Shown: positions 2,433 to 56,087 of the stretch, one piece after another
Layout: every line of letters starts with the position of its first letter
Numbering within the stretch: position 1 is the stretch's first letter
Source of the DNA: a phage
Length of the DNA: 64,000 nt
Sequence record: NC_135730.1
Direction: 5' to 3' (one strand)
Notes under the pieces: model-generated
What the model saw: the letters and a program-made list of their open reading frames with translations, nothing else
Told to the model about the DNA's origin: nothing
Databases searched by the model: none
Position numbers and translations under genes: made by a program

Positions 2433-2495
2433 AAGATTGACATCTGAAAACTGCAGTGTATAATATATGCATAAACTAACAGAGAGTGATGTATT

Positions 2496-2687: not shown

Positions 2688-2697
2688 GTATCGTGCC

Positions 2698-3030: not shown

Positions 3031-3050
3031 GAAAGCGCAGGAGATAAAGT

Positions 3051-3296: not shown

Positions 3297-3486
3297 GCTT
3301 AAATCTGCATGGAACATCGCTGTGGGGGACGAGATCCGTATCCCAGGTGGAAAGACCATTATGAAGATATCTCGTATTGAGTACGAAGGTGACCGTGTAT
3401 TCCACATCTTCGCAGAAGATGGTCGAGAAATTTATATACAGGCAGGTTCTCACATCTATATCCGTAAGAAAGGGGACGACAAATGA
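3289..3486 (+). CDS. hypothetical protein
   Basis: ATG at 3289, 7 nt after AAGGAGG; overlaps previous stop. Confidence 0.5.
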   Translation: MFKLKSAWNIAVGDEIRIPGGKTIMKISRIEYEGDRVFHIFAEDGREIYIQAGSHIYIRKKGDDK

Positions 3487-3815
3487 CAGAGATCATCGTT
3501 TCAACTGCAGGGTATGTATTCCTGACAATCATTGCGCTGGCTATTCTGGTGGCGGTGTATGGATTTGTTATCCTGCCTATTCTTGAGACATTTAGTTTGT
3601 GTCGGTGTTGGAGAAAAGCTTACGGACCACAACCGTGGAAAGACTGGTTCCATTTGGTGCGTATAGCGTTCTCTTATGCCTATGACCACTCTAGCAGTGC
3701 ATGCGTAACCGGGTACCATGCCTACAACTGGAACTGGGAAGGGCTGGGGAGATGGACTGTTACAAAAACTATACCCTTACGGTTGTACAAAGGAAAGAAC
3801 ACACTGGGAGCCTGA
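3483..3815 (+). CDS. hypothetical membrane protein
   Basis: 110-aa track ORF with hydrophobic N-terminal segment. Confidence 0.5.
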   Translation: MTEIIVSTAGYVFLTIIALAILVAVYGFVILPILETFSLCRCWRKAYGPQPWKDWFHLVRIAFSYAYDHSSSACVTGYHAYNWNWEGLGRWTVTKTIPLRLYKGKNTLGA

Positions 3816-4416
3816 TATTTTAAGTTATCAGGTTGCCAGAGATCAGGAGGATTTCTAAAATGGATTTCCTCCTTTTGATATTTTACCTGCCAGGATATTT
3901 TAAAATCCTTAGAAAATCAGAAAATGGATCGAAAACTAAAATGGATTTTTCAGAGTAGGCGCGACAAGCTGAATCACTCATCCTACCGTTTGCACCATAT
4001 TCCAGACCACCATTATAGATTTCCCGCACATGCTTACATCTCGCTACTAGAACTTCCTCCACTTACCCTTGACCTTTTATAGCAATAATCCAACCACTAT
4101 CTTGAAGTTGCGGTGCAGCTTTCCAGGTACTCGATCTGTTTTTCGTTTCAAAGATTGAATTTTCTGAAAATTTTTCTCGATAAATTTCTCAGTACTCGAT
4201 CTGTTTTTCGTTTTCTGAATCGGATTTTCTGGAAATCGCTCCGGCTCTTGGCCTAAAATTTTTGGGGACGAAATCGATTTTTCGTTTTCAGAAATGGATT
4301 TTTAAAATTTCTATACGGGAATATTTTATGGGATACTGTTTTATAGGAAATTGTTACGGAGGGTAATTAGCGTGCTAATTAAATTTATTAAATGCGAGGA
4401 GTTCTCATTTAGAATT

Positions 4417-4435
4417 TTGAATGATAATCATTCTC
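4417..4435. promoter_or_regulatory. Fur-box-like site A
   Basis: ttgAATGATAATCATTcTC matches the 19-bp Fur consensus GATAATGATAATCATTATC at about 15/19. Confidence 0.45.
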
Positions 4436-4449
4436 GTTTGCAGAATAAC

Positions 4450-4495
4450 GGGCAGGCCCGGTGATTGTCTCCCGGCCCCTGTTGCCCCGGCTTGT
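4450..4495 (+). repeat. GC-rich hairpin element, copy 1
   Basis: ggcaggcccggtgattgtctccc core shared with 4590-4629 and, inverted, 13459-13507. Confidence 0.6.
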
Positions 4496-4552
4496 TATTA
4501 TAGTATCACACAGGACAAAGAAAGCAAGGATTTTTTGCATAAATTTTTAAAT

Positions 4553-4571
4553 GATAATGATAACCGTTCTC
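4553..4571. promoter_or_regulatory. Fur-box-like site B
   Basis: GATAATGATAAcCgTTcTC matches the Fur consensus at 16/19. Confidence 0.45.
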
Positions 4572-4589
4572 ATTTTATGCAGCGCCCAT

Positions 4590-4629
4590 CCCCGGTGGTT
4601 GTCTCCCCCGTCACCGGTGCCTGCCGTCC
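4590..4629 (+). repeat. GC-rich hairpin element, copy 2
   Basis: ccggtggttgtctcccccgtcaccggtgcctgcc with internal inverted repeat ccggtg/caccgg. Confidence 0.6.
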
Positions 4630-4889
4630 TTTCGATAGGTATATTGTGCCACCTGGCGGGGCCGCTGTCAACACTTTTCAAAAAATTTTTCTAACCTGAT
4701 GCGCTAACCGCTGCCACCTGGCGGGGCCAGCCTGGAAAATGTAGCTATTAATGACGCTGAGGCTATCACCCTGGTTGAAAAGGCCATGGCGGGAGCGTTG
4801 GAACATAAAGAAGAGTACGAAAAAATGATGGTTAACCTGGCAGGGCGGCGGCAGGTGGATTCTATCATAAAAATAATTTAAAATAGTCG

Positions 4890-4918
4890 TTGACAACAAG
4901 GTTAATCATGGTATTATT
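4890..4918 (+). promoter_or_regulatory. sigma70-type promoter
   Basis: TTGACA, 17-nt spacer, ATTATT. Confidence 0.6.
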
Positions 4919-4967
4919 ACCCTACAAGGTGAACAACACCGCACTAACCAGTAAAGAGGATAAATTT

Positions 4968-5165
4968 ATGAACGCATACGGGATCAAAGTACGTCGCAAC
5001 ACTCGCCAGGTGGTCACCAATCAAGTGATTTGCCGGGTGGATGTAACCATCAACAACGGGCAAGGCCTTTATAAATTTCGTCGCGGTCATAGCTATACCC
5101 TGCAACAGCTTAATCGTTGCGCCCTGACAAAAGGTCAGATCAACCACTGGTTTAATAAAAAATAA
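4968..5165 (+). CDS. hypothetical protein
   Basis: ATG at 4968 after AGAGGATAA RBS; internal to track ORF 4890-5165. Confidence 0.55.
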   Translation: MNAYGIKVRRNTRQVVTNQVICRVDVTINNGQGLYKFRRGHSYTLQQLNRCALTKGQINHWFNKK

Positions 5166-5168
5166 GTA

Positions 5169-5197
5169 TTGACATATAGTCCGACACCAAATACACT
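5169..5197 (+). promoter_or_regulatory. sigma70-type promoter
   Basis: TTGACA, 17 nt, TACACT. Confidence 0.55.
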
Positions 5198-5229
5198 AAA
5201 AGCACAAAAGACACTAAGAGGATAAAATC

Positions 5230-5628
5230 ATGAAAACCACAACCTTTAATTTTGATAATGCCGACTTTTCTTTTTCTGATGTCAAGAACTGCCGCCGTGA
5301 TCGTGGATTTTACAAGGCTTATAATCTAGTGGGCCTGGACGATGACAATAATTTGCACGAAGTAGCTGAGATCCGGTATTATGCCGCCGCCAGCGGGAAC
5401 ACTTACTACTGCGTTTTTTGGATACACGACAACAAGAACAATAAGTACGGCTATACTGGCGGCAAGGCGAGCGGTCACGGTTATGATAAAGCTAACGCAG
5501 CATTTGAGAGCGCATTAAATGCTATGGGGATCACTGCCAACGGCTGGATCTATGAAGAAGAGTTTTTGTCGGCACTTGCTAACCACCTAGGCTATAAAAA
5601 GCACATTGTAACATGTGCCCACGAATAA
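5230..5628 (+). CDS. hypothetical protein
   Basis: 132-aa track ORF; AAGAGGA RBS. Confidence 0.65.
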   Translation: MKTTTFNFDNADFSFSDVKNCRRDRGFYKAYNLVGLDDDNNLHEVAEIRYYAAASGNTYYCVFWIHDNKNNKYGYTGGKASGHGYDKANAAFESALNAMGITANGWIYEEEFLSALANHLGYKKHIVTCAHE

Positions 5629-5638
5629 AAAAAAATTA

Positions 5639-5666
5639 TTGACACGCTGCAAAATTAAAGTAAACT
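5639..5666 (+). promoter_or_regulatory. sigma70-type promoter followed by 5' leader hairpin (5677-5695)
   Basis: TTGACA, 16 nt, TAAACT; leader hairpin ggcgggaatgtttcccgcc then CA-rich leader. Confidence 0.55.
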
Positions 5667-5714
5667 AGACACAAAAGGCGGGAATGTTTCCCGCCAACAC
5701 AAAGGAAAAAGATC

Positions 5715-6110
5715 ATGAATAAGAACGTACGCCGCATCATGAACGAACTGGCAAACGATGAAAAAATTATTGATATGCATTTGGTCAACATTTGCCGCCG
5801 TTGTGTAACATATAACAACCGCGCCGCAAAAGCGCGTGAGATGAACGCAAAAGGCACCTTAAAGCCCTTTCAGGTGGTTGTAAAATCTATAGCTAATGCA
5901 GCAGGCCAGGCGCATGACCACAACAACGAGAGCACTAATATTGATCCGTCTTACGTAATGAAACGGATCCGGACTTGCAAGAATAAAGAGCAGGTGTATA
6001 ACGTCATAGATTGGCTGGACTCCATGGGCGATGGGGTTTATAATAGGTTTTCTGCAGCTATCGAGATCCAGCTTGACAGATTGGACGGGAAAGTACTGAA
6101 AACTTACTGA
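5715..6110 (+). CDS. hypothetical protein
   Basis: 131-aa track ORF. Confidence 0.65.
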   Translation: MNKNVRRIMNELANDEKIIDMHLVNICRRCVTYNNRAAKAREMNAKGTLKPFQVVVKSIANAAGQAHDHNNESTNIDPSYVMKRIRTCKNKEQVYNVIDWLDSMGDGVYNRFSAAIEIQLDRLDGKVLKTY

Positions 6111-6121
6111 GTTTATTTTTA

Positions 6122-6158
6122 GATGGCCTTGACACCAGGGCCATCAATAAAGTAAACT
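6122..6158 (+). promoter_or_regulatory. palindrome-embedded promoter, copy 1
   Basis: GATGGCC-ttgacaccag-GGCCATC inverted repeat with TTGACA in the loop; near-identical copies at 6741 and 10484. Confidence 0.55.
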
Positions 6159-6189
6159 AACCACAGTTGAGCGGAAAGGGGGCTTAAAG

Positions 6190-6309
6190 ATGAGTACTAC
6201 ACGCCAGCACACAAAGGTAACTATTATCGTTTGCATCATTGGTTACATCCTGGCGCAAATGTTGATGGGTAGCGCCAACGGTATCGCAAAATTTTTCTTA
6301 AACTTTTAA
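6190..6309 (+). CDS. small hydrophobic peptide (39 aa)
   Basis: MSTTRQHTKVTIIVCIIGYILAQMLMGSANGIAKFFLNF after AAAGGGGG RBS; below track size cutoff. Confidence 0.4.
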   Translation: MSTTRQHTKVTIIVCIIGYILAQMLMGSANGIAKFFLNF

Positions 6310-6337
6310 TTGACAAGCTAACTTAGATCAGTATACT
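6310..6337 (+). promoter_or_regulatory. sigma70-type promoter
   Basis: TTGACA, 16 nt, TATACT; leader hairpin gggaaaacttccc. Confidence 0.6.
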
Positions 6338-6387
6338 AACCACATAAACGGGAAAACTTCCCAGAACACACAAAAGGAGAAAACACC

Positions 6388-6729
6388 ATGACTACTATGA
6401 CCGCCGCAGATAAAGCTATGCAGATCGCCGCGCTGAAAAAACAGATCGCAGACCTTGAGAATAAGATCGATAACTTTGAAATCGACGAGGACAAGTACGA
6501 CGAAAACTATGATGAATGGTTAGACGAGATCTACGGCGAAATTATGATCGGAAACATTTCTTTTCTTCCGTCGCGTATCCTCAAGGAGCTAGATCCTATC
6601 GCTTACCGCTGCGGATTTAGCGACTACATCGACAGCCTGGATATTGAGGACGATGAAGAATACCAGGAATTACAGACAGAGTTGGAAGAAGCAAAAGAAG
6701 AGCTTGCGGAGCTGGAAGAAAACGAGTAA
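6388..6729 (+). CDS. hypothetical acidic coiled-coil protein
   Basis: 113-aa track ORF; AAGGAG RBS. Confidence 0.65.
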   Translation: MTTMTAADKAMQIAALKKQIADLENKIDNFEIDEDKYDENYDEWLDEIYGEIMIGNISFLPSRILKELDPIAYRCGFSDYIDSLDIEDDEEYQELQTELEEAKEELAELEENE

Positions 6730-6740
6730 GATTATTTTTA

Positions 6741-6777
6741 GATGGCCTTGACTCCAGGGCCATCAATAAAGTAAACT
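6741..6777 (+). promoter_or_regulatory. palindrome-embedded promoter, copy 2
   Basis: gatggccttgactccagggccatc. Confidence 0.55.
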
Positions 6778-6818
6778 TTATACTGTTAACACTGAACTAA
6801 TGCATAGGAGTTAAAACC

Positions 6819-7064
6819 ATGGCAGCACTAATCACCAAATATTATGCCCCTACCAACACCAAAAGCGCCCGTATCATGGTAAAAGGCTTCGGACGTAAAA
6901 AGGTTTACACCTGGGATTATGCCTTAGACACGGAAGACAACTACACCAACGCGATGACCGATTTTATTAATGATCTGAACACGCGGATCTTGACAAATTA
7001 TAAAATTACCGATATTGCCTATATAGGGGAAGGCGGGATCTGTTTTGTCGGTATCGTCAAATAA
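6819..7064 (+). CDS. hypothetical protein
   Basis: 81-aa track ORF; ATAGGAG RBS. Confidence 0.6.
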   Translation: MAALITKYYAPTNTKSARIMVKGFGRKKVYTWDYALDTEDNYTNAMTDFINDLNTRILTNYKITDIAYIGEGGICFVGIVK

Positions 7065-7139
7065 GCTGTTTTTTCGGTGGTCCTGGTAGCAGGGCCATCT
7101 ATAAAGATAGTTTATCAACACAATGAAAGGAGAAAGTAC

Positions 7140-7493
7140 ATGATCAGCGGGGCAAGTTTTATTATTGGCGCTATTGCTACGGCTTTAATTGTAAACAAGA
7201 TCCAATCTAAAAACGAAAAAGAGAGCAACGCGCTCACAGAATACCCATTTTGGGTATTCAACGACAATGAAGACTACATTATCAAGTACAAGAATGAGAA
7301 GGGCGACCAGGTAACACCGCGACCGATCCCAGCTTACAAGATGCAAGAAACACTATACCGCCTAAAGGCTGGAGGCGCAAAAATCGTAGACTTTTGGGGA
7401 TATGATTGCAAGGATCAGGAGGTTATAAAGCGCCGTATCCGGGCTATTCAGGCCAATATTGAAGTTAGCAAGGGGGGAATATATGAAGATTAA
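7140..7493 (+). CDS. hypothetical protein with N-terminal hydrophobic segment
   Basis: ATG at 7140 after AAAGGAG; track ORF 7077-7493 starts at a GTG inside the upstream palindrome variant. Confidence 0.55.
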   Translation: MISGASFIIGAIATALIVNKIQSKNEKESNALTEYPFWVFNDNEDYIIKYKNEKGDQVTPRPIPAYKMQETLYRLKAGGAKIVDFWGYDCKDQEVIKRRIRAIQANIEVSKGGIYED

Positions 7494-7680
7494 TTTTGAG
7501 AAGATTGTAAAGCGATCTCATGATTCCAAAGAGCTGCCGGAACGACGCCAGCGCAACAATAAACTGAATAAGCCAAAAAGATTTGGGAAGATCTGGCGGA
7601 ATCATTATGATCGTAAATTGCCGGGCCTACTTTTGGAACGTGAACGACAGGCGGAACGATACCGCCACAAAGGCAAATAA
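7483..7680 (+). CDS. hypothetical basic protein
   Basis: ATG at 7483 within track ORF 7459-7680; followed by a terminator. Confidence 0.5.
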   Translation: MKINFEKIVKRSHDSKELPERRQRNNKLNKPKRFGKIWRNHYDRKLPGLLLERERQAERYRHKGK

Positions 7681-7687
7681 CAACCAA

Positions 7688-7716
7688 CGCCCCGCCATTG
7701 TGCGGGGCTTTTTTAT
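7688..7716 (+). terminator. rho-independent terminator
   Basis: gccccgc-cattgt-gcggggc followed by TTTTTT. Confidence 0.7.
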
Positions 7717-7863
7717 TTCTATCCTACGAATAGCGCCCCTGGTTGGCCCTGTAAACGCCATAAAAGCCCCTACCTATGCAATCCCCTTTCTTAACCTGAA
7801 AACAGCGTCTAGGGCCGTTTTATGGCGTTAAAAATGTTATTGACAGTGATTTTATTTAAAGCT

Positions 7864-7891
7864 TGACACCTTGGAATAGTCCGGATATACT
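7864..7891 (+). promoter_or_regulatory. sigma70-type promoter (second TTGACA at 7839)
   Basis: TTGACA, 16 nt, TATACT. Confidence 0.6.
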
Positions 7892-7926
7892 GACCACATC
7901 AAAGCAAGAAGGAAGGAGTAAACGCC

Positions 7927-8187
7927 ATGCGTAAATTGAAAAATTTTGATAAGGTAGATGTAGTACTGAATAATTTTTACTACTGCAATAATAAAGCCGT
8001 TTGGTGGCGTGATAGTTCCACCGATAAAGTTAAGGCGCGCTTTCTCCAAGGGCACTGGCAAGGCCGTCCAGTGATTAAAATCATGGGGCAATTGGTAGCG
8101 TTTAAAAATTGCCGCCGTGTTGATGACGTTGAAGAGATTTTAAGCATTTTGCGCCACAATAATTTAAAAAATAGTGTTGACAAGTAA
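7927..8187 (+). CDS. hypothetical protein
   Basis: 86-aa track ORF; AAGGAG RBS. Confidence 0.65.
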   Translation: MRKLKNFDKVDVVLNNFYYCNNKAVWWRDSSTDKVKARFLQGHWQGRPVIKIMGQLVAFKNCRRVDDVEEILSILRHNNLKNSVDK

Positions 8188-8204
8188 ATCTCGATAAGTA
8201 TACT
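8177..8204 (+). promoter_or_regulatory. sigma70-type promoter with leader hairpin (about 8215-8233)
   Basis: TTGACA, 16 nt, TATACT; hairpin ggcgggaaaacttcccgcc. Confidence 0.6.
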
Positions 8205-8261
8205 TAAACACACAGGCGGGAAAACTTCCCGCCACTAACAAAGAAAATAGGAGAAAATATC

Positions 8262-8885
8262 ATGACCACCGTTAACATTACCACAGGTTACAATTTATCT
8301 TTCGACGTGCTGACCGATGAACAAAAAGAAAAAGCTATTGAAATGGTCCGCGAAAGAGAAGAACACAGCGGGGATAACTTTTTTGCAGAAAGTGTAATTG
8401 AAGACTATAAAGAACATATCTTTCCAGAGTATGGCCTTGAAGATACCAAGGTACATTGGTCCGGCTTTTGGTGCCAGGGCGACGGCGCGTCAATCAGTGC
8501 GGAAAACGTGGATTTAGAAAAATTCTTGCGTAAAGTCAAGTCTCTGACTAAATTCCGCTCAATTCGTCACTTGTTCGGCACAATGCACGATGGCGAGCTA
8601 TCCGCAAGTGTTGAGCGTGATCCATATAGCCGCTATAGTCACGAAAACACTGTAAGCGGGTACATCGATACTACATGGCTAGACCTGACAGCCAAGCAAG
8701 AAAGTAAGGTTGAAGAGCTGGAAGAGCTGATCACCGAGACGGTACGGGAGCTATCCCGCAAGGTTTATGTAGACCTGGAGGAGGCCTATCTAGAACAGTT
8801 CACTACCGAAAACCTGATCGGCCTTATTGAGGCCAATGATTGGCGGTTTGATGTGGATGAATATGGAGAGATGAGTTTTTCATAA
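8262..8885 (+). CDS. hypothetical acidic protein
   Basis: 207-aa track ORF; largest gene of the early array. Confidence 0.7.
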   Translation: MTTVNITTGYNLSFDVLTDEQKEKAIEMVREREEHSGDNFFAESVIEDYKEHIFPEYGLEDTKVHWSGFWCQGDGASISAENVDLEKFLRKVKSLTKFRSIRHLFGTMHDGELSASVERDPYSRYSHENTVSGYIDTTWLDLTAKQESKVEELEELITETVRELSRKVYVDLEEAYLEQFTTENLIGLIEANDWRFDVDEYGEMSFS

Positions 8886-8974
8886 ATAAAGTGTTGCAAT
8901 AATCTAAAAACTTGCTATATTAAAACTCAAGGGGGCAAGACGTTTGCCCCACACAAAACAAAGAGGAAAACATT

Positions 8975-9355
8975 ATGAAAAACACTACTAAAGCTATTGA
9001 CACCGTTATGTTTAACCTGGTTACCTTTCGCGAGGATATGAAAGATCTTCCACGTGAAACAGTGTGCGATCACATTGAAAACTATCGCAAACTAATCAAA
9101 GAGTTGCCTTTAAAACGTGACCAGTATGCGGCTAACGCTATGCTCAACGCCATGATCAAAAAGATGATTCAGTGTGATTTAACCCTGGCTTATGATTATG
9201 CAGGTGGTCGTTTTGCAGTATACAATCAGCCCGTGCCTGGTATGGGCACCACCGAAGAATTGCACGCGCTCAATCTAAAACAAGACGTGTGGGATAGTAT
9301 GCCCCGCGTGGTGGTGTGGGCAGAAAGCGGAAAGATTTACGGCGATAATTTTTAA
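8975..9355 (+). CDS. hypothetical protein
   Basis: 126-aa track ORF; upstream TTGCAA/TATATT promoter and leader hairpin. Confidence 0.65.
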   Translation: MKNTTKAIDTVMFNLVTFREDMKDLPRETVCDHIENYRKLIKELPLKRDQYAANAMLNAMIKKMIQCDLTLAYDYAGGRFAVYNQPVPGMGTTEELHALNLKQDVWDSMPRVVVWAESGKIYGDNF

Positions 9356-9364
9356 TCAGGTAAC

Positions 9365-9392
9365 AGGCGGCATATTTGCCGCCTTATTGTTA
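9365..9392 (+). terminator. rho-independent terminator
   Basis: ggcggca-tattt-gccgcc followed by TTATTGTT. Confidence 0.55.
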
Positions 9393-9419
9393 AACAGAAC
9401 TGCAAAAGAGGTACATAGA

Positions 9420-9791
9420 ATGGAATTTATTATTTTGGCCGTATTAGTTTCCTTGTTTAACGCCTGGATCGCTGGCAAGATGGGTAGATCCGCCTTTTTA
9501 TGGTTTATTATATCTATTTTCCTGGGGGTGGTTGCAACTATTGTACTTGTTATCCTTGCAATTGTTGACAAGGGGAATAATAGAAAGGGTAAAGTATTTT
9601 CAGACCTGTACGACGCTCAAACATTTGTCAACGCCTACTACAGCGATCTTCCAGTCTCCCTACGTTGCAGCCTTGCACAACAGGTTTTCGATGAAGCTAA
9701 AACCAGAGATCACGCCCATGAGATTTGTTTAACTGAGGCGGATCGCCTATTTGAGAGGAATAGAAAATATGTGGACCAGCCGTTTAAATAA
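9420..9791 (+). CDS. hypothetical membrane protein
   Basis: ATG at 9420 within track ORF 9387-9791; two predicted TM segments. Confidence 0.55.
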   Translation: MEFIILAVLVSLFNAWIAGKMGRSAFLWFIISIFLGVVATIVLVILAIVDKGNNRKGKVFSDLYDAQTFVNAYYSDLPVSLRCSLAQQVFDEAKTRDHAHEICLTEADRLFERNRKYVDQPFK

Positions 9792-9990
9792 TGCCACGTT
9801 AATTAATCCCTTTAGTGAAGATTTGAAGCCAGCCGCCTGGCGCGATGGATTCAATAACGAAAGCTTTATTTTCAGGCCTGATCTTAAGGAATTTTATAAC
9901 AATGGATCGAACAACGACAGAGATAATTTTTCTTGTAATGTGCGTGGTGATAATACTCCTGGGGGCCATTGCAAACCACGTCACTGCTAA
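9769..9990 (+). CDS. hypothetical Asn-rich protein (an alternative frame 9902-10027 encodes a TM peptide)
   Basis: ATG at 9769 with GAGAGGA RBS; competing overlapping frame. Confidence 0.3.
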   Translation: MWTSRLNNATLINPFSEDLKPAAWRDGFNNESFIFRPDLKEFYNNGSNNDRDNFSCNVRGDNTPGGHCKPRHC

Positions 9991-10010
9991 CAGGAGGGGA
10001 GGGGGAGACG

Positions 10011-10130
10011 ATGACAACCAAGGATAAGCCCCGCACCGATAAGGTGCGCCGTGTTATGGTATGGCTTGAGATCATCGCCCTTGAAATATTGTTAGGCGTA
10101 GGGATGTACTTTATCGCTGTAAGTAACTGA
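10011..10130 (+). CDS. small hydrophobic peptide (39 aa)
   Basis: MTTKDKPRTDKVRRVMVWLEIIALEILLGVGMYFIAVSN after AGGAGGGG RBS. Confidence 0.35.
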   Translation: MTTKDKPRTDKVRRVMVWLEIIALEILLGVGMYFIAVSN

Positions 10131-10133
10131 TAA

Positions 10134-10166
10134 CGGCCCCCAATCCCTGGGGGCTTAACTTTTTCA
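10134..10166 (+). terminator. rho-independent terminator
   Basis: gccccca/tgggggc stem followed by a T-run. Confidence 0.5.
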
Positions 10167-10270
10167 AAAATTTTTCTTCCCGGGTGTTGCAATCCGGTCC
10201 GGAATATGGATAATAACAATCAACGGGGAAACATCCCCACCAACACAAAAACCAGAAAGGAGAAACAAAA

Positions 10271-10471
10271 ATGAGCAACAATATCCGCGTTATTAACTTC
10301 AAAAAAGAAGAAAAAATTGCCGTGCTGATTGACGGTCAAGAAATCTTCAAGGGCGACTATGAAGATCATCAAACGGCGATTAGTATCACTCGCGTGATTG
10401 GTTACCATAATTTTTACCCCCAAGGCGCTGAGGCGGCGGTTAAACGAATCAAAGAGATTGTAGGCCTGTAA
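10271..10471 (+). CDS. hypothetical protein
   Basis: 66-aa track ORF; leader hairpin ggggaaacatcccc; AAAGGAG RBS. Confidence 0.6.
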   Translation: MSNNIRVINFKKEEKIAVLIDGQEIFKGDYEDHQTAISITRVIGYHNFYPQGAEAAVKRIKEIVGL

Positions 10472-10483
10472 AATTTATTTTTA

Positions 10484-10520
10484 GATGGCCTTGACTCTAG
10501 GGCCATCAATAAAGTAAATT
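10484..10520 (+). promoter_or_regulatory. palindrome-embedded promoter, copy 3
   Basis: gatggccttgactctagggccatc. Confidence 0.55.
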
Positions 10521-10556
10521 TAAACCCTGTTAAAATAATCAGTGCAAAAAGGAGTA

Positions 10557-10862
10557 ATGATCATGTTTATCCAGGCTAATAATCTTTATTTCTTTGATGG
10601 TCAGATCGTAGACGGCGTGGAGGTGGAAATCACCGGGTGCCCTGGCGGTCAGGTTATGACTTTTCGGAATAATGCCTTTGATGATTCTCATATCGTTATG
10701 AGAATGGAAGTTAGTAAGCTGGATGACAAGAAAACACTTATCGACTATTCTGTGAAAGATCATCCAGACTACCACATGATCTATGGTGATTTGTGCGTTG
10801 TTGACCGTGACAAGGTGGGCGGCATTGTGATCGCTATTGTGAACGATGTTTTCTCAAACTAA
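10557..10862 (+). CDS. hypothetical protein
   Basis: ATG at 10557 (or 10563) after AAAGGAG; within track ORF 10542-10862. Confidence 0.55.
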   Translation: MIMFIQANNLYFFDGQIVDGVEVEITGCPGGQVMTFRNNAFDDSHIVMRMEVSKLDDKKTLIDYSVKDHPDYHMIYGDLCVVDRDKVGGIVIAIVNDVFSN

Positions 10863-10879
10863 TTTCAGCAGGTGATTTT

Positions 10880-11230
10880 ATGAAAGTAAAACTATATTAC
10901 CTTAATGAGCTTAACCCCCTTGCCCAGGTCCGCGCCATAGCTAATACCTTGATTTGTGAGAAATCTGTATATTGTGTTGAGCTTAACGCCATGCGTGAAC
11001 GTCTCAAAGGTGGTTACTTTGACATCCATACTGCAATCAACGGCCTGAATATGGAATTTATACGCTTACGTAACAGCCGCTGGAATCTGGCAAGAATGGA
11101 ACAAGATCCGGCCTACCTTCGTAAGCTGGTTATTGAAAATCATCTGATGTTTAATGCCGAGGGTGATTATTACCATTTTCACCGCAGACGCTGGTACCGT
11201 GGCGGCAATACAGGCAAGAATGCAAAATAA
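10880..11230 (+). CDS. hypothetical protein
   Basis: 116-aa track ORF. Confidence 0.6.
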   Translation: MKVKLYYLNELNPLAQVRAIANTLICEKSVYCVELNAMRERLKGGYFDIHTAINGLNMEFIRLRNSRWNLARMEQDPAYLRKLVIENHLMFNAEGDYYHFHRRRWYRGGNTGKNAK

Positions 11231-11261
11231 GGCCCCTAGCAGGGCCTGCAGCAATATAATC

Positions 11262-11300
11262 ACATAAAGGCTATGCGGTTGCATGGCCTTTATTATTTTG
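11262..11300 (+). terminator. rho-independent terminator
   Basis: 8-bp stem ggctatgc/gcatggcc followed by TTTATTATTTT. Confidence 0.55.
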
Positions 11301-11430
11301 GCGTTACAACGGCATACGGGGCGCTTAAAAATTTTTAAAAAGTACTTGCATCATTCCCGACAATATGGATAATAGGACGCATCAGGGGGGCGGCCCCCAA
11401 TCATTAACCGGATAGATAGGAGTTAAAACC

Positions 11431-11715
11431 ATGGCTATTGTTACCGTTGGCGATGTAGTGGAAATGGAAGCAAAATACTTAAAAGCGGGTATGCATATCC
11501 TTCGGAACGATCAAGAAATGTTGCTGACTATGGTTGACTATAATCCTGGGCAGGATTATCCTAGCGTTGACTACTTTTTCCAGTATGTTGATGAAGAATT
11601 AAAAGAGGATGAGGCTTATTGCGGTGAGTTCTGCAACTTCTTTTGCCCGGATGAAGTTGTAAAAGTTATCTATCAACCTGGCGTACCTTTCCCGCTACAC
11701 GCTATCAATAAATAA
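11431..11715 (+). CDS. hypothetical acidic protein
   Basis: 94-aa track ORF; TTGCAT/GATAAT promoter; ATAGGAGTTAAAACC leader as for the 6819 gene. Confidence 0.65.
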   Translation: MAIVTVGDVVEMEAKYLKAGMHILRNDQEMLLTMVDYNPGQDYPSVDYFFQYVDEELKEDEAYCGEFCNFFCPDEVVKVIYQPGVPFPLHAINK

Positions 11716-11771
11716 ACCTGGCGGGGCCGAAAAGGCCCCCCAATTATGAAAATAAAGAGAGGCAAATCATC

Positions 11772-12002
11772 ATGATGGAACAAATTAAACGCGCCGAGGC
11801 TATTAATGGCAACGTGATCTATTTTGTCAGCAATAACGAAAAAGGCGTACCATATGCGGCGGTAATAGTACAGCCTGACGGCGATTATTGGTTTACTGTG
11901 TACGGCGCTTACTCTTTTGGGCGTCCAGTGCATGATAAAATTTTGAAAGTAGCGAACCCTACCGGGAAGAATATCACAGCAGAAAAATTTTTTGAAAAAT
12001 AG
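11772..12002 (+). CDS. hypothetical protein
   Basis: 76-aa track ORF; leader hairpin ggggccgaaaaggcccc. Confidence 0.6.
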   Translation: MMEQIKRAEAINGNVIYFVSNNEKGVPYAAVIVQPDGDYWFTVYGAYSFGRPVHDKILKVANPTGKNITAEKFFEK

Positions 12003-12082
12003 TTGACATGGCCTTATAAGACTGTAGAATATAAATCAAAGGGGGCAACAAGCCCCACCAACCACAAAGAGGATAAAAAATC

Positions 12083-12262
12083 ATGGCTATTATTGCAAAG
12101 ACTGAGATCGTAGGCTTAGATTCTATTCTCCTCGCATATGAGGAAGCTATAGAAATGTATGTGGTTTCCTATGGTGAATATATCCGTGAATATAAATCTA
12201 TTGATCTGGCTTTTGAATGTTATATTCGCCAGGTTAATAAAGCGTACGATGATTATCGTTAA
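12083..12262 (+). CDS. hypothetical protein (59 aa)
   Basis: own TTGACA promoter, leader hairpin, AAAGAGGA RBS; below track cutoff. Confidence 0.45.
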   Translation: MAIIAKTEIVGLDSILLAYEEAIEMYVVSYGEYIREYKSIDLAFECYIRQVNKAYDDYR

Positions 12263-12352
12263 AATAGCTTGACAACAAACAACCATCTAACAAAGCATAA
12301 TACATAAGGCGGTGGAATGGTCCGCCACCTGGAACAAGAAGAGGAAAACAAG

Positions 12353-12457
12353 ATGAAACAGAAATTAATTGATGCGGTGATCCTGGTTATTGCCCTGGGT
12401 ATTGGCCTGATTGCAACCATGTCTAATATGATCTTGTCTTCCAACGGTATCGGGTGA
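12353..12457 (+). CDS. small hydrophobic peptide (34 aa)
   Basis: MKQKLIDAVILVIALGIGLIATMSNMILSSNGIG after promoter, hairpin and AAGAGGA RBS. Confidence 0.4.
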   Translation: MKQKLIDAVILVIALGIGLIATMSNMILSSNGIG

Positions 12458-12466
12458 GGTTGGCAA

Positions 12467-12682
12467 ATGATCACTAACAAAACAGGCAAAACAGAATTTT
12501 TACGCAACTTACAGATCGGCAAGCCTGAGATCTGGTATTGCACTAAAACACCACGTGACGAAATGAAAGACTTCACCGCCACGCTGCAACGGGTAAAGAT
12601 ATCCATCACGCAGAAAAAGGCCTTATTAGTGGTGGAAGGTGAGATCCCCCAAACCGTTGTTATAGTTGAGCGTACAGCATAG
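12467..12682 (+). CDS. hypothetical protein
   Basis: 71-aa track ORF. Confidence 0.55.
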   Translation: MITNKTGKTEFLRNLQIGKPEIWYCTKTPRDEMKDFTATLQRVKISITQKKALLVVEGEIPQTVVIVERTA

Positions 12683-12773
12683 TTTAATTTATACCGATAC
12701 CCGAAAATTAACCAACAAAGCATAAACAGGCGGTTACCGCCGCCTTAAACGTAGCAGAAAGAGGATAGACACA

Positions 12774-13058
12774 ATGAAAAAGATGATCGCAGTGGTTGCC
12801 CTGGTTGTTGGACTTAATGCGCCTGTAATGGCTAAAGAGCTGGCAAAAGAGGTTAATCTAACGGATATTCATGCCGTCAATCAAATCGGGGTTACTTATC
12901 GCTTATGCCTTGCCGCTAAAACTTTCCAGGACGGCACGACAGAGTACTACGGATTCGAGGGTATCCGGTGCGGTGAGCTTGCTCGCGACCTTAAGGAAGA
13001 TCCAGATCTGGAAGATCTACCCATCACCGTAAACGGTAAAGCTTACGTAAACCGTTAA
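12774..13058 (+). CDS. hypothetical secreted/periplasmic protein
   Basis: 94-aa track ORF; N-terminal signal-peptide-like MKKMIAVVALVVGLNAPVMA. Confidence 0.6.
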   Translation: MKKMIAVVALVVGLNAPVMAKELAKEVNLTDIHAVNQIGVTYRLCLAAKTFQDGTTEYYGFEGIRCGELARDLKEDPDLEDLPITVNGKAYVNR

Positions 13059-13060
13059 CC

Positions 13061-13195
13061 ATGAGAAAGATAACCATCACCTTGGGGATTGTGGTAGCAA
13101 TACTGGCGCTCTTTCCCCTTATGGTTAGGTATGTGCTGATCAGTGTTGTCCTGATAGTCAGTGATCTATTGGAAACGGTTGGCACCTTGTTTTAA
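13061..13195 (+). CDS. small hydrophobic peptide (44 aa)
   Basis: MRKITITLGIVVAILALFPLMVRYVLISVVLIVSDLLETVGTLF; below track cutoff. Confidence 0.35.
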   Translation: MRKITITLGIVVAILALFPLMVRYVLISVVLIVSDLLETVGTLF

Positions 13196-13208
13196 AGAGC
13201 GATAAAAA

Positions 13209-13400
13209 ATGAATATCGAACAAGTTAGAAAGGTATTAGCGGTACTGCGTTATCATAATCATAGAAAGGTCATAGACGATCCTGATTATGTTGATTCAAG
13301 CCTGGAAGAGGATACACTACAAGCCATAAGTAACATGCAAGAATTGCTAAAGCGCATGACAGAGAAAAACCGACCGGACTACATAGGCGAAAAAATATAA
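13209..13400 (+). CDS. hypothetical protein
   Basis: 63-aa track ORF followed by a terminator. Confidence 0.55.
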   Translation: MNIEQVRKVLAVLRYHNHRKVIDDPDYVDSSLEEDTLQAISNMQELLKRMTEKNRPDYIGEKI

Positions 13401-13416
13401 TATTTATAAACTACAA

Positions 13417-13446
13417 AACAGGGCTTGCAATGGTCCTGTTTTTTGT
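13417..13446 (+). terminator. rho-independent terminator
   Basis: acagg/cctgt stem followed by TTTTTTG. Confidence 0.55.
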
Positions 13447-13458
13447 TATACTTATTCC

Positions 13459-13507
13459 ACGGCAGGCACCTGGCGACGGGGGGAGACAATCACCGGGCCT
13501 GCCTGTC
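13459..13507 (-). repeat. GC-rich hairpin element, copy 3 (inverted)
   Basis: reverse complement reads ggcaggcccggtgattgtctccccccgtcgccaggtgcctgcc. Confidence 0.6.
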
Positions 13508-13611
13508 ATATAAGAACTATAAAAACCGTTGACATCTGCCATGGGGTGGGGTAACATTTATCTTGAAGGGGCAAAAGTGCCCACACAACACCCAGGAGAG
13601 AGGAAAACATT

Positions 13612-13884
13612 ATGTCAAGCTGGATTAATCAAGAAGTCGAATCACGTTTTAATGCTATATGGGATCTCATCGAAAAAGAGGACGGAACATCAAGCCCCTA
13701 CCTCAACAATTTGGAATTCCATTTTGTGGAAGCGATGAACGCAGAACATGATCACGAAGGTGGCGCGGATGAGTTCGCTAAAGGTTATGGCTTTAACAAT
13801 GCCAACGAAATGATCGAGGCGGTCGTACTCCAGGCTGAGGAAGATTATCAATTAAAAACGCTTGAATTCTGCCGCCGTAAGTAA
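13612..13884 (+). CDS. hypothetical acidic protein
   Basis: 90-aa track ORF; TTGACA promoter at about 13533; leader hairpin gggcaaaagtgccc. Confidence 0.65.
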   Translation: MSSWINQEVESRFNAIWDLIEKEDGTSSPYLNNLEFHFVEAMNAEHDHEGGADEFAKGYGFNNANEMIEAVVLQAEEDYQLKTLEFCRRK

Positions 13885-13944
13885 TAAGATAATGACATGG
13901 GCCAAAAGGCCCACTAATCAGAACCACACAAAGAGAGAAAGAAA

Positions 13945-14163
13945 ATGACAACCCGTAAAATTAAAGTTGTTTGCATTGAATCGACTGGGGGCGCTTTTGT
14001 AGTTGGTCAGGAATATAATGCGGTTTTAATGGGTACGGATTGGAAGGTTAAAGGCCTTAATGGTTACGAGTACGGCACTACTTGCGGCTTGCGTGGTCGA
14101 ATCGGATACGTGAGTTTAGACAATAAAGAAAAATTTGTTTTCGACACCCTTGTGAGTAAATAG
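13945..14163 (+). CDS. hypothetical protein
   Basis: 72-aa track ORF; leader hairpin gggccaaaaggccc. Confidence 0.6.
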   Translation: MTTRKIKVVCIESTGGAFVVGQEYNAVLMGTDWKVKGLNGYEYGTTCGLRGRIGYVSLDNKEKFVFDTLVSK

Positions 14164-14240
14164 CATGAATTGCTAAAAACTGATCTGCGAACTGCTGTAT
14201 TATCAACTAATCAAAACGAACCACATAAAGAGGAAACATC

Positions 14241-14504
14241 ATGAAACGTCTGGATCAGCTTAAATTAGTTCAGTACATGGCCTACAGAATTCTTGAAGTC
14301 CAAAAAGGTAGCAAAAAAGAGGTTTGCGAGAAAGCTTATAAGATCTTTACCCGCAAAAAAGATGACTGGATGCTACGCCAGACCAAAAAGGCTGACATCT
14401 TGGGGTACCTGGAAGAAGAGATCCGCCTTGAAGAGCAAGAAGAGATCCGCCGTAGTGAGGCAGATTATCAGGCAGCTTGGGAAAGCTGGATGAGTAACAA
14501 ATAA
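14241..14504 (+). CDS. hypothetical protein
   Basis: 87-aa track ORF; AAAGAGGA RBS. Confidence 0.6.
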   Translation: MKRLDQLKLVQYMAYRILEVQKGSKKEVCEKAYKIFTRKKDDWMLRQTKKADILGYLEEEIRLEEQEEIRRSEADYQAAWESWMSNK

Positions 14505-14646
14505 TACAACAAGTTACGGTCAGGGGGTAATAAAGCCCCTTGATCACATAAAAATTATGCTATCCTTGGTTGACAAGGATCGGCAGTTTTGCTATATTCT
14601 TTTTGAAGGGAAGTTGTAAGAAAATTAACTAAGAGGTAAAAACACC

Positions 14647-15066
14647 ATGAACATTAAATCTAATAATCCGGCATATAGCTTTGATAACGCTTTTTGTCAC
14701 GGTCCGGCGGCGAAAGGATTCGAAATCGATGGTAAACTAATTATTGTCAATGTTGACGGGGAAGAGGTTGCAGTATATCCGGTGGCAGACGTTAAAAGCC
14801 GTTTGCAATGCCGCATGGATGTTACCGCCTATCAGCTTGATCCGGTCCGCATAGTTGCCCTGGTCCTGGAAGAAGAAATTAAAGCCATGCACCATAGCAA
14901 CAGGTTTATTGGTGACGCTCAGGATAATATGAAGGTATGCCGCTATAAAGTTAATGAAGTGCTTAAAGAATATGGATTTAAGGATCTGATGATCAAACGT
15001 GATGAAAAATTCCGCTACCGTAACGACCTGGCAAATCGGATTTTTGAAATATACGAATCATTATAA
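14647..15066 (+). CDS. hypothetical protein
   Basis: 139-aa track ORF; TTGACA/TATATT promoter at about 14567-14600. Confidence 0.65.
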   Translation: MNIKSNNPAYSFDNAFCHGPAAKGFEIDGKLIIVNVDGEEVAVYPVADVKSRLQCRMDVTAYQLDPVRIVALVLEEEIKAMHHSNRFIGDAQDNMKVCRYKVNEVLKEYGFKDLMIKRDEKFRYRNDLANRIFEIYESL

Positions 15067-15084
15067 TTTTTTAACTGAATTATC

Positions 15085-15110
15085 AAGGGGCTTAGGCCCC
15101 TTTCTTTTTG
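15085..15110 (+). terminator. rho-independent terminator ending the + strand early block
   Basis: aagggg-cttag-gcccct followed by TTCTTTTTG. Confidence 0.65.
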
Positions 15111-17500
15111 TCTGCTCTTCCCCCTACCATAAACGGCCCTACCTGGCAAGTGGAATAATTGACGAGCCATCAATCCCACACACTGTACAAATATACATGT
15201 AAAATAGCTATTGCATAACCTTTCATTGTGTGGTAGCAGGGCTATTTTACCCGTTTTCCCTTCCAAAATTGCACGTAATGCCGCTATTGCACAAATTTTA
15301 ACCTGATGCAGATCTTCAATATCTTGTCAACAAATAAAAATTCTTATAAGTCATACACTTACACCAACACAAAAGCGTTTTCTACGTGAAAAATCGAGTA
15401 TAACTATAGCCGCCAGATCTCAGAATTTACGTACGCTCACCATTCTATAGCCTGCTAAGTATTTATTCCAACCATAGAATAATGGAATAGTCAATACCTG
15501 CATAAAATAATTATTCGTTTAAATTGCATAACATAAATCAGCCAGGGTGTCAACATTTTTCGTAAACAGTCCGAAATTATCGCTGTGAATTATCATAAAC
15601 AGAGAAATCTTTAGTCGTCTAATGTTTACTGTACGTTACTATACTGACTGGAATCATTAGATGACTAAGAGAAAGATAAGAAATAATTAACAATACAATT
15701 ATTTTATCTGTAACAATAAGGCAACTATGCAAACGAATGGCATGGCGCGACGGAGTCGCGACATAATATAAAAGCAGTAACCATCACCCCCGTGATAGTT
15801 TGTCTGCAATCTATTAATCAGATCATAGTTGCCTTGTATTTAGTTAATCATGACATAACAAGCAAGGCAACTATAGATCTTCTAATAGTTGCCCTGCTTT
15901 TATATTATGTCATAGAAACACCCGAAGGGGTGACCAAAGGTCACCTGGCATAGCCAGCGAAAGATTATTAACTTGCTAATCGTTATCATGCAAACGAATG
16001 GCATGGCTTATAATTTTTGAGCAAATAGTCTATACGTGAACAGTGAGGCATGCAATAGTAACAATTGTTATTATATCCAGTGTTTAGTATGCCCAGTGTG
16101 TCAAAGGTGTCTAAAGTGTCAGACAAGTTTTTCTCCTCTTTGTCAAGTGCTGCATGAAAAATTTACAATCTGGTATGGTAGCATTTTTGCGGCCCTGTTT
16201 ACATCCAGTTGTGTATGTATAACCCTTGTTGTGTGGGCGTTTAGACGTCTGGACGGTTGGAAGTCTACAGGTCAATATCTAATCTATCGGCTGCTAACTA
16301 TATCCCACACAAATAGTAAGAAATATAATTGTTATATGCGTAAACAGTAACTCATGTTATCAATCCCTGTATGTATCGCCAGTGGTGCGCATAATGGGTA
16401 TTATGTTAAATTGCCCGTAATGATAATGGTTCTCACAATGATATGTATTCTCATTCCCCCACACAAAATAGATTGCAAATGTTGTGCCACTATGTGAACG
16501 GCCTCACCTATTAATTTGCCTCACTGCCTCGATATTTGAGAATTGTTATAAGAATGAGAAGTATTCCCATTTCGTCCGCCTGGCAGCACTCCTGTCGGTC
16601 AGGTCAAAATCGTGGTATAACTGGACCTGTTCAGATATTTCTGGCTGACTCTTCAGGCCTGTGTGGGAAAAGCCGACCCCTCCGGCGGCGGGGAGGGGGT
16701 CAATTAAAAAATTTACGGGGTATATGAAGCGCTCTTCAGGTAAGGCAGGTATTATGGGATGAAACCCTCTTCAGGTAATGATATTTGTGGGTGTGATATT
16801 TGCTGGAAAGCCAGATATGACGGGACTCCCGGCGGGGCAGGGGTAGTACAGACAGGGAAAATATGGAGGATGTGGTTGGGTAAATTGATCAGACAGGTAG
16901 AGTATGGAATATGTTATGAATATGTTAAATATAGAGGTTGAATATCTGTAGGATTTGTGTGTAAAATCAAAGACTTAAGTGGTGTTGTGGTATTTTCTAT
17001 AAATAATTCAAGTTTAATAGGTGATATTTGTCCCTATCTACTTTGTGTGGTAAACAGATTCAGATGAGATTGGTTTACGAGTGTATACATAATATACAAA
17101 TTAAAGATACAAGAAACCCCCCTCCCCCTTCGGCTACCATTCACCTTTTCCTCTGACTGGTACTTAAACACTTATTCAGACTCTTCAGGTTATCACCCAT
17201 ATATCATATGGCAGTGACTGGTGTCCTCCGGCCCCTCTTTCGTCACCCGTCCGCTTCGCCATGCTAATGCCATAGCCAAATGTTCGGTTGTTCACCCTGT
17301 TCACTCAGGTGTATCTCCATACCCCTTCAAACCGAAGAGAACAGAAAACCCGAATTACTCGGTAAAAGAAAAGAGAAGAACTTAATTTTATCAGGATAGG
17401 CAAGAATGTCAAGGCATGACTGCTCACTAAACAAGCAAACAGTCATGTGTGGGAGGTAAGTGATTGTGGTGGTGGGAAATTTAGTTGAAAGATGTGCTAC
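15111..17500. other. 2.4 kb non-coding repeat-rich region at the convergence of the two transcription blocks
   Basis: no credible ORF with RBS; nested inverted repeats 15757-15915, duplicated atgcaaacgaatggcatggc, four ctcttcagg repeats, CCCCTCCCCC motifs. Confidence 0.6.
16672..16705 (-). terminator. candidate minus-strand terminator
   Basis: gacccctcc/ggagggggtc hairpin followed on the minus strand by GGCTTTTCC. Confidence 0.35.
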
Positions 17501-17541
17501 AGGTGCGCTTCCAGCACTTTAGCCGGGCAGCTAATTGTGTG

Positions 17542-17757
17542 TCAGTCCAGCGGTTCATCCTCTACTTCACTGAAATCAATGTTCATGGTCTCTTCCCAAC
17601 CATCGATCTCAGCACAAGAGTGGAGTTCTTTAGGGTTTACTCCCAAAGCCTCAGCAACAGAGTCTATATTTAACACCTCTGGCAGGTATGATTCATCGAA
17701 TTCAAGGTAAATCAGGCCACGAGTGTTGTCAGCTCCACCAAATATTTCTATCTTCAT
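17542..17757 (-). CDS. small acidic protein (family A-like)
   Basis: ATG at 17757 after AGAGGAG RBS; starts MKIEIF; within track ORF 17542-17823. Confidence 0.5.
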   Translation of the reverse strand: MKIEIFGGADNTRGLIYLEFDESYLPEVLNIDSVAEALGVNPKELHSCAEIDGWEETMNIDFSEVEDEPLD

Positions 17758-56058: not shown

Positions 56059-56087
56059 ATCGTTGAAATTAAAACGGAGGATTACTA

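Follow-up and report, generated by a model that had tools for sequence, protein, structure and literature searches.

A conserved gene-free island where two gene blocks converge

The 64,000-nt stretch of phage DNA analysed here (sequence record NC_135730.1, hereafter the window; all coordinates refer to its given strand) belongs to a Vequintavirus, an rV5-like coliphage, and contains between positions 15104 and 17541 a non-coding, conserved and repeat-rich island. Two gene blocks converge on it, as the original prediction had stated: on the + strand an open reading frame (ORF) homologous to ORF164 of phage rV5 (14647-15066) ends shortly ahead of a terminator at 15085-15103 that is likewise annotated in phages Murica and EdH4, and on the - strand an ORF stops at 17542. 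The analysis below indicates that this island is likely to be the terminal region of a linear chromosome whose ends are fixed and carry a short direct terminal repeat (DTR).

The predicted absence of any credible ORF was borne out by several analyses. Throughout, conservation, periodicity and invariant-column figures refer to an alignment of 13 Vequintavirus genomes, invariant columns being counted per 40-nt step. Substitutions displayed no 3-nt periodicity in any of 17 sub-windows of the island (lowest p 0.04, lost after multiple-test correction), and six flanking ORFs, serving as positive coding controls, were periodic with p values from 6e-4 to 2e-14. The eight longest island ORFs yielded zero PHROG family matches, the four of them compared with Pfam yielded none there, and a tRNA/tmRNA scan found nothing in the island. 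Because periodicity and PHROG or Pfam matches are both lacking, the small coding sequences (CDSs) annotated here in phages Mangalyan, NHEP1 and PMBT16 are probably spurious. Pairwise identity in the island (0.81-1.00) is as high as in the flanking genes (0.72-1.00) or higher, which argues, on conservation, that the island is not neutral DNA.

Matches to the island, at 88-97% identity, were found in 121 phage records; those that were fetched and are annotated belong to Vequintavirus. Most of these 121 records leave it unannotated, and a few place 3-16 tiny CDSs there. As in the E. coli vequintaviruses, it is present, at 89-97% identity to the window, in 19 'Campylobacter phage' records (GenBank MG0656xx, e.g. 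MG065659.1 and MG065655.1; host Campylobacter jejuni), for which it looks as if the organism or host label is wrong or the samples were mixed. In rV5 the island lies between ORF164 and ORF163, where the published map has a grey, ORF-free 'non-coding' box (Kropinski et al. 2013, PMC3606486, Figure 2); the same authors ascribe shifts in GC skew at nt 104425-105475, inside the island, to the change in transcription direction, and the passages of that paper on the box propose no function for it. The gene-free stretch is real, and the claim that it is unusual for a compact phage genome is tempered by the presence of the same box in the 2013 rV5 map.

Chromosome ends of close relatives map inside the island

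The assignment as chromosome ends follows from close relatives, whose ends, as read from sequencing data, map inside the island. For phages EdH4 and HdK5, Korf et al. (2019, PMC6563267) reported 458-bp terminal redundancies, with sequencing reads breaking off abruptly at defined start and end points, and EdH4 was linearised there. In the EdH4 record the initial and the final 459 nt are identical; because this record is the reverse complement of the window, its repeat maps as 16580-16122, with 96% identity. By homology, virion DNA in window orientation would start with GACAAGTTTTTCTCC... at 16122 and end with ...CCCATTTCGTCCGCC at 16580. At least nine records break exactly at one of these two positions (EdH4, HdK5, ECP2309, ECP2303, YN3, Pr121LW, bov11CS3, bov25_3 and bov22_2), and at least seven further records are broken elsewhere in the island, against about 2 of 121 expected by chance according to our own arithmetic. 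As a query, the repeat was found at two places in 8 records, including EdH4, ECP2309 and YN3, and in the latter two it stands at the record start.

The window itself holds a single copy of the repeat, which fits an assembly that ran through the junction and collapsed two copies into one. Such an assembly would join both ends, with ca. 1.0 kb of right-end DNA (15104-16121), one repeat copy and ca. 1.0 kb of left-end DNA (16581-17541). Inside the repeat, 50-93% of columns are invariant and the mean per-column majority is 0.91-0.98; the most indel-prone DNA of the island lies immediately outside both repeat borders. From the list of candidate functions originally proposed for the island, the packaging or physical-ends option is therefore the one upheld by relatives with ends from sequencing data, whereas the proposed Rfam covariance search for structured RNA gave no match. 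All features delimited in and around the island are collected in Table 1.

Table 1. Features in and around the island, in window coordinates (a dot denotes no assigned strand)
Feature	Position	Strand	Evidence
Intrinsic terminator closing the + gene block	15085..15103	+	Terminator scan; 7-bp GC stem then T run, -12.9 kcal/mol
Left spacer, conserved non-coding	15104..15726	.	No codon periodicity; pairwise identity 0.87-0.95; GC 0.34-0.38
Module between two exact 20-bp direct repeats	15727..16007	+	Copies 15727-15746 and 15988-16007
Nested palindrome, ~150 bp	15760..15911	.	Outer 18-bp and inner 12-bp arms; four ATAGTTGCC/GGCAACTAT copies
Optional cassette, three small hairpins	15912..15963	.	Absent or replaced in 6/13 genomes; common to plasmid pE275a_13
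Hypervariable zone, short repeats	15964..16121	.	2-39% columns invariant over 16027-16146
Direct terminal repeat (DTR), single collapsed copy	16122..16580	+	EdH4 459-bp prefix-suffix identity; record breaks
Sigma-70-like promoter match TTGTCA-18-TACAAT	16140..16169	+	10/12 matches; 19 nt inside left end
Box A GATATTTGAGAATTGT, candidate recognition element	16531..16546	+	34 nt inside right end
Ten conserved bases TGGCAGCACT outside right end, then cassette insertion site (0-52 nt)	16581..16640	.	Alignment
GC-rich hairpin GACCCCTCC...GGAGGGGGTC, then GGCTTTTCC on - strand	16676..16702	-	-20.1 kcal/mol
Four same-strand CTCTTCAGG copies	16649..17189	+	Starts 16649, 16732, 16767, 17181
Almost invariant block	17107..17384	.	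83-100% columns invariant in 13 genomes
Strong sigma-70 promoter TTGACA-16-TGnTAAAAT	17385..17412	-	11/12 matches, extended -10; directed at repeat

A candidate signal at the right border is conserved across genera

Close to the right border of the repeat lies a 16-bp word, here called box A, which has 0-2 mismatches in all 13 Vequintavirus genomes. It also occurs, with the same 34-nt spacer, in a diverged 140.6-kb viral genome from IMG/VR (UViG 3300045988_159287, hereafter L004), where the spacer is followed by CGCCTGCC. This 16-mer, GATATTTGRGAATTGT, stands 34-36 nt inside the right end in both Vequintavirus and Phapecoctavirus, the repeats of which are otherwise unalignable. The Phapecoctavirus concerned, Schickermooser, was linearised at read ends and has an exact 329-bp terminal repeat; its last gene, an ORF164 homologue (90% amino acid identity) with a terminator behind it, lies at a distance of 1.26 kb from the right end. 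Beyond short matches (best E 0.004), its junction did not align to the window. Its box A (GATATTTGGGAATTGT) is nevertheless identical in 15/16 bases and lies 36 nt from the right end, against 34 nt for the Vequintavirus GATATTTGAGAATTGT, and the left ends of the two are alike as well, with GACAAGTTTTTCTC against AGCAAGTTCTCTT directly inside the border. The two borders are marked both by record ends and by sequence: nine records break at the same two bases, and box A and the cut-site bases are kept in the 13 genomes, L004 and Schickermooser. A scan of IMG/VR for box A gave 95 matches, roughly the chance expectation by our own arithmetic.

Alignment with Septuagintavirus (phages A73 and A5-4) revealed no similarity beyond ORF164. 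In Escherichia phage A73 the locus tags wrap (A73_1 beside A73_264) in the equivalent gene-poor stretch (1668-1753 of locus L020), suggesting that the original contig ends of this septuagintavirus were located there too. The ORF164 homologue itself (14647-15066) encodes a protein that is 86-91% identical across Vequintavirus, Phapecoctavirus and Septuagintavirus, the surrounding DNA being unrelated. It is the last gene before the right end, is absent from EdH4 and has no Pfam family match; the annotators of Murica noted a Rel homology domain for it.

Two further words inside the repeat were considered. The sigma-70-like match near the left end overlaps the conserved word CTCTTTGTCAA (93% of columns invariant), and because L004 keeps CTCTTTGTCAA but not the promoter spacing, promoter function at 16140-16169 appears doubtful. 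The word TGTGTGGG is enriched; it was rejected as a conserved site and assigned no role because one of its three in-repeat copies varies between genomes.

Elements flanking the repeat

The left spacer (15104-15726) becomes AT-rich toward its right end, where the palindrome module begins. The repeats that the original prediction had listed here were recovered at coordinates within 3 nt: the duplicated 20-mer ATGCAAACGAATGGCATGGC is exact and starts at 15727 and 15988, and the nested inverted repeat has perfect 18-nt arms (15760-15777 and 15894-15911) that enclose 12-nt arms (15825-15836 and 15863-15874). By our own arithmetic, fewer than 1e-4 perfect 18-nt inverted or 20-nt direct repeats would be expected by chance in 2.6 kb. 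Folded as single-stranded DNA (ssDNA), the segment 15705-16010 reached -61.8 kcal/mol (z = -8.75), with 0/100 shuffles as good. Apart from one 33-nt insertion site, 85-97% of the palindrome columns are invariant.

Between the palindrome and the left border of the repeat the DNA becomes variable. The hypervariable zone has up to 65 extra alignment columns per 40 nt, and 15907-16121 contains short repeats of variable copy number, namely CGTAAAC-type 16-mers, of which rV5 has an additional array according to Tandem Repeats Finder (TRF), and GTGTCA-type 9-mers. The latter include a TRF-detected tandem array of 9-mers (GTGTCAAAA x2.7, 16098-16121) that stops one base before the left border.

To the right of the repeat, the ten conserved bases give way to a segment (16587-16626) with only 9% invariant columns. 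The GC-rich hairpin at 16676-16702 has a folding z of -1.7 on the - strand and 0.1 on the + strand, and probably is a terminator that halts leftward transcription before the repeat, as its sequence suggests. Several C/G-rich hairpins had been predicted in the island; this one folds, and the other runs do not, CCCCCCTCCCCC at ca. 17122 for example having no partner. The four predicted copies of ctcttcagg(t), i.e. CTCTTCAGG, were all found on the same strand, and a fifth copy lies at 17830 inside the neighbouring gene. The window as a whole contains 8 copies versus 0.52 expected, all on the + strand, and some of the four island copies precede TGTGTGG or GATATTTG words. Going by sequence, the copies beside the repeat form a candidate protein-binding array.

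Further to the right, pairwise identity in the block 17107-17384 is 0.97-1.00, above that of most flanking coding DNA, and codon periodicity is again lacking. A structured RNA was considered for 17095-17380 and rejected, the fold being no better than shuffles (z = -1.2 on the - strand and -0.2 on the + strand).

The window contains 31 copies of the word TGTGTGG (read as CCACACA on the opposite strand) versus 8.9 expected, mostly in non-coding DNA and with clusters at 15176-17452 and 55034-57980. The word often stands just after a small GC hairpin, e.g. upstream of the genes starting near 8920 and 13550, and is a possible phage-specific promoter, terminator or processing signal.

Layout of the island in a diverged relative

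L004 aligns to the island in only six short segments, yet it reproduces the layout element by element despite its diverged sequence. Both copies of the 20-bp direct repeat have changed together, to ATGCAACGATAACATGGCGC, and the palindrome arms co-vary (GACATAATAACGCTGAG and CTCAGCGTTATTATGTC), the ssDNA fold again being better than shuffles (z = -5.85). A 3x GTATGCC array is followed by ACAAATT...CTCTTTTTGTCAA. On the right, L004 contains four CTCTTCAGG copies, two of them in segments aligned to copies of the window and the others roughly corresponding, and the block 16759-16857 aligns with 75% identity. There is a GC hairpin at the place equivalent to 16676-16702, and a sigma-70 promoter (TTGCAA-17-TATAAT) equivalent to 17412-17385 that is followed by a hairpin of different sequence. 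In L004 the island, free of genes in other respects, has received an insertion of an HNH_3 homing-endonuclease gene (8776-9483; E = 1e-18).

Right-end modules in small elements of E. coli

The only Escherichia coli DNA similar to the island was the 52-nt three-hairpin cassette, found in two plasmids of 13.6-13.7 kb; a host origin of the island DNA was rejected, this being its only match. Compared with the plasmid, the cassette is 88% identical over 52 nt, with the differences mostly in hairpin loops and one in the third stem. One of these plasmids, pE275a_13 (NZ_CP035869.1; 7331-9536 and 10375-11473), is a circular 13.7-kb element with a module of the Vequintavirus/L004 type. It has three non-coding pieces in common with vequintaviruses only, and no other nucleotide similarity to phages in the collection: the cassette; box A followed after 34 nt by GCGCCTGCC/TGGCA (the slash marks the border); and a 61-nt element. 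The latter lies at 57895-57955 of the window (intergenic region 57458-58116) and at 7704-7764 of the plasmid, with 85% identity. Its 6-bp stem has three pair differences, all compensatory (ACCGAC/GTCGGT versus GCTGCC/GGCAGC), indicating that the structure of this element is under selection. CCACACA words flank it in both window and plasmid, and it had no Rfam match at gathering thresholds. The non-coding DNA of pE275a_13 is further enriched in TGTGTGG (14 copies in the plasmid versus 1.3 expected) and includes one reverse-strand CTCTTCAGG.

The Schickermooser type of right end turned up in a second kind of element. Of the 95 IMG/VR box A matches, 13 extend into a 75-nt Schickermooser-type module across the cut site (IMG/VR loci recorded for the two element types: L023, L024, L026, L031, L032, L038, L056, L068, L099, L107 and L112). 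The chromosome of E. coli E3 contains a 13.7-kb island with such a Phapecoctavirus-type module (1863-15619 of locus L117) at the tRNA-Thr beside proA, and a 599-nt query spanning the chromosomal module was found in 288/5426 complete E. coli genomes. Genes for a lambda-E-type capsid protein and a tape-measure-like protein are present in both element types; the chromosomal element also has genes for an integrase and a resolvase. Their capsid proteins are homologous (22% identity, E = 3e-15), and each element type matches one phage type, spacer length included.

That each of the two element types has the end module of another type of phage suggests that they are satellites using a packaging signal borrowed from a helper. 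We raise, tentatively, the possibility that box A and the cut site 34-36 nt downstream constitute the terminase signal of rV5- and phAPEC8-like virulent myoviruses, which satellite elements have copied for their own packaging. A literature search found no paper linking satellites to these phages.

Alternative explanations

Several points weigh against fixed ends with a short repeat. The ends in the window are assigned by homology at 96% identity, with one mismatch within 15 nt of the right border. Since the orientation of some records may have been copied from EdH4, the nine records with matching breaks are not guaranteed to be independent. The DTR accounts for only 459 of the ca. 2440 bp of the island, the roles of the flanks being ones we infer, and for the small hairpins the fold is not clearly better than that of shuffled sequence. 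Moreover, according to a 2026 paper, PhageTerm assigned headful packaging with partial permutation to one vequintavirus, taken from a phage cocktail, and earlier publications attribute circularly permuted genomes with terminal redundancy to the related phages PVP-SE1 and PhiTE. These reports would fit a headful (pac) start region without fixed ends, in which one cut starts the series and head filling sets the remaining ends. That reading is nonetheless very improbable, as both ends are base-exact in several deposited genomes and EdH4 and HdK5 reads are reported, in the passages concerned, to end abruptly at both ends. A headful mechanism would also generate a variable redundancy of several percent of the genome, whereas the same short duplication is found in different phages: its length is fixed at 458-459 bp, or 0.3% of the genome, and several of them have exactly the same borders.

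A replication origin, alone or alongside the termini, might be located in the palindrome module, with an initiator binding the four ATAGTTGCC/GGCAACTAT sites (15718-15899) and melting of the AT-rich DNA at 15640-15720. The module has repeated 9-mers in either orientation together with a large palindrome, its flank is AT-rich (GC 0.34-0.37), it is nearly invariant in the 13 genomes, and L004 keeps it beside ca. 160 bp of very AT-rich DNA. T7, for its part, has secondary origins at promoters near both genome ends. No initiator gene adjoins the module, however, and the local skew changes are ascribed by the rV5 authors, where they discuss them, to the switch in transcription direction. Sequence cannot separate an origin from a packaging or repeat-duplication element, and an origin leaves the terminal repeat and the right half of the island unexplained. 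We consider an origin unlikely, although an origin function of the palindrome module would be compatible with chromosome ends.

The right half could alternatively encode a cluster of non-coding RNAs, transcribed from the - promoter at 17412-17385 up to a hairpin at 17350-17362 or the GC hairpin at 16702-16676. This promoter is near-consensus with an extended -10 and has an L004 counterpart of different sequence that is likewise followed by a hairpin, and the 300 nt downstream, which are non-coding, are the most conserved DNA nearby. Such conservation could equally reflect a function at the DNA level. The covariance check for structured RNAs proposed at the outset came back negative, as the island had no match at gathering score in Rfam 15 and only chance-level ones at E <= 10 (three to eukaryotic families in 14900-17700, E 0.4-9). 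The segment 17095-17380 folds with z = -1.2/-0.2 and the short hairpins with z = -0.3 to -1.7, and a literature search found no vequintavirus transcriptome. We regard an RNA gene cluster as rather improbable. Decayed genes or a neutral spacer where the transcription units meet would account for the lack of ORFs and family matches and for several indel-prone segments. Most of the island is conserved like the neighbouring genes or more, though, its layout persists in L004 despite sequence divergence, and repeat arms and direct-repeat copies change together; a neutral origin is accordingly disfavoured and hardly credible.

The rV5-like phage PhiTE carries an 'escape locus' of pseudo-ToxI repeats in an intergenic region (Blower et al. 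2012, PMC3475682). The parallel is that of a functional non-coding locus in a related myovirus, and the island differs in lacking a 36-nt tandem array; pseudo-ToxI was rejected, as there are neither tandem 36-nt repeats nor an Rfam match in the island. A 36-nt 'repeat_region' annotated in phage navn falls inside the terminal repeat by our own coordinate conversion.

Comparison with known junctions and a model of end formation

Terminal repeats of this sort are a known kind of feature, and the repeat itself has already been reported for sister phages. The island corresponds to both the non-coding box of rV5 and the redundancy of EdH4 and HdK5: locus and repeat are the same, with a nucleotide identity of 92-97%. 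The link between box and redundancy, the anatomy of the borders, box A, the palindrome and the motif arrays go beyond the relevant passages of the two papers concerned, and the sources searched yielded no description of the detailed anatomy, the cross-genus right-end signal or its occurrence in mobile elements.

Among phages that have terminal repeats, a concatemer junction without genes is nothing out of the ordinary. T7 and T3 have fixed ends, short exact direct terminal repeats of 160-230 bp and a gene-free junction of 1-2 kb; short-repeat arrays (SRL and SRR in T7) adjoin the repeat directly, a palindrome a few hundred bp from the repeat is implicated in its duplication, and the end-proximal promoter phiOR of T7 fires into the junction. 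The island shares the fixed ends, the gene-free junction, flanking short-repeat arrays, a palindrome and a promoter directed into the junction, and its near-invariant block (17107-17384) and adjacent promoter recall the end-proximal promoter of T7. It differs in belonging to a 137-kb myovirus rather than a 40-kb podovirus, in a repeat about three times longer, in a sigma-70 rather than a phage-polymerase promoter, in having both flanking gene blocks transcribed toward the ends, and in lacking sequence similarity. In the cos site of lambda (cosQ-cosN-cosB) and the pac site of SPP1 (pacL-pacC-pacR), same-orientation repeats beside the cut site bind the small terminase subunit, and the island likewise has a cut site flanked on one side by same-orientation repeats. 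By this analogy, box A, GATATTTG and CTCTTCAGG words are suggested to bind the small terminase subunit. Unlike lambda, with its 12-nt cohesive ends, and SPP1, which packages by headful, relatives of this phage have a 459-bp duplication and two fixed borders; a cos site was ruled out, since deposited linear genomes carry the 459-bp duplication as duplex.

Assuming T7/T3-type chemistry of cutting and duplication, replication and recombination would produce head-to-tail concatemers with one repeat copy per junction. The terminase would recognise signals in and beside the repeat and cut at both borders, with the repeat being duplicated so that each end of the packaged genome receives one copy. Judged by position and conservation, the strongest candidate signal would be that of the right border, box A together with a cut site 34 nt farther downstream; weaker candidates are the GTGTCA array that stops at the left border, the 150-bp palindrome to the left of the repeat, and the CTCTTCAGG/GATATTTG words. 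The putative terminators at 15085-15103 (+) and 16676-16702 (-) may keep the converging transcription units off the ends, while the conserved sigma-70 promoter at 17412 is predicted to fire toward the junction.

Other features of the window

Far from the island, seven tRNA calls (Arg, Tyr, Ser, Thr, Met and Pro) are clustered at 59995-60807; one of them is odd, an ARAGORN call at 60464-60562 of 99 nt with a 4-base anticodon that Rfam does not confirm. About 1.5 kb downstream of this cluster, a group I intron was found at 62327-62605 (Rfam RF00028, 84 bits, E = 6e-20).

Significance

Chromosome ends at this locus explain the gene-free box that has stood on the rV5 map since 2013, and which more than 100 deposited vequintavirus genomes leave unannotated or fill with spurious small ORFs. 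They also provide a defined start coordinate for the genome, namely window position 16122 (GACAAGTTTTT...). Vequintaviruses are common in phage-therapy and biocontrol cocktails, and whether their genomes have fixed short-repeat ends or are packaged by headful bears on generalised transduction and on genome engineering. The short right-end signal offers a concrete, mutable target for studying end formation in a 137-kb myovirus. If its copying by small E. coli elements is true, these elements would represent a class of satellites of large virulent coliphages that had so far gone unrecognised, and would provide a new handle on phage-satellite interaction in E. coli.

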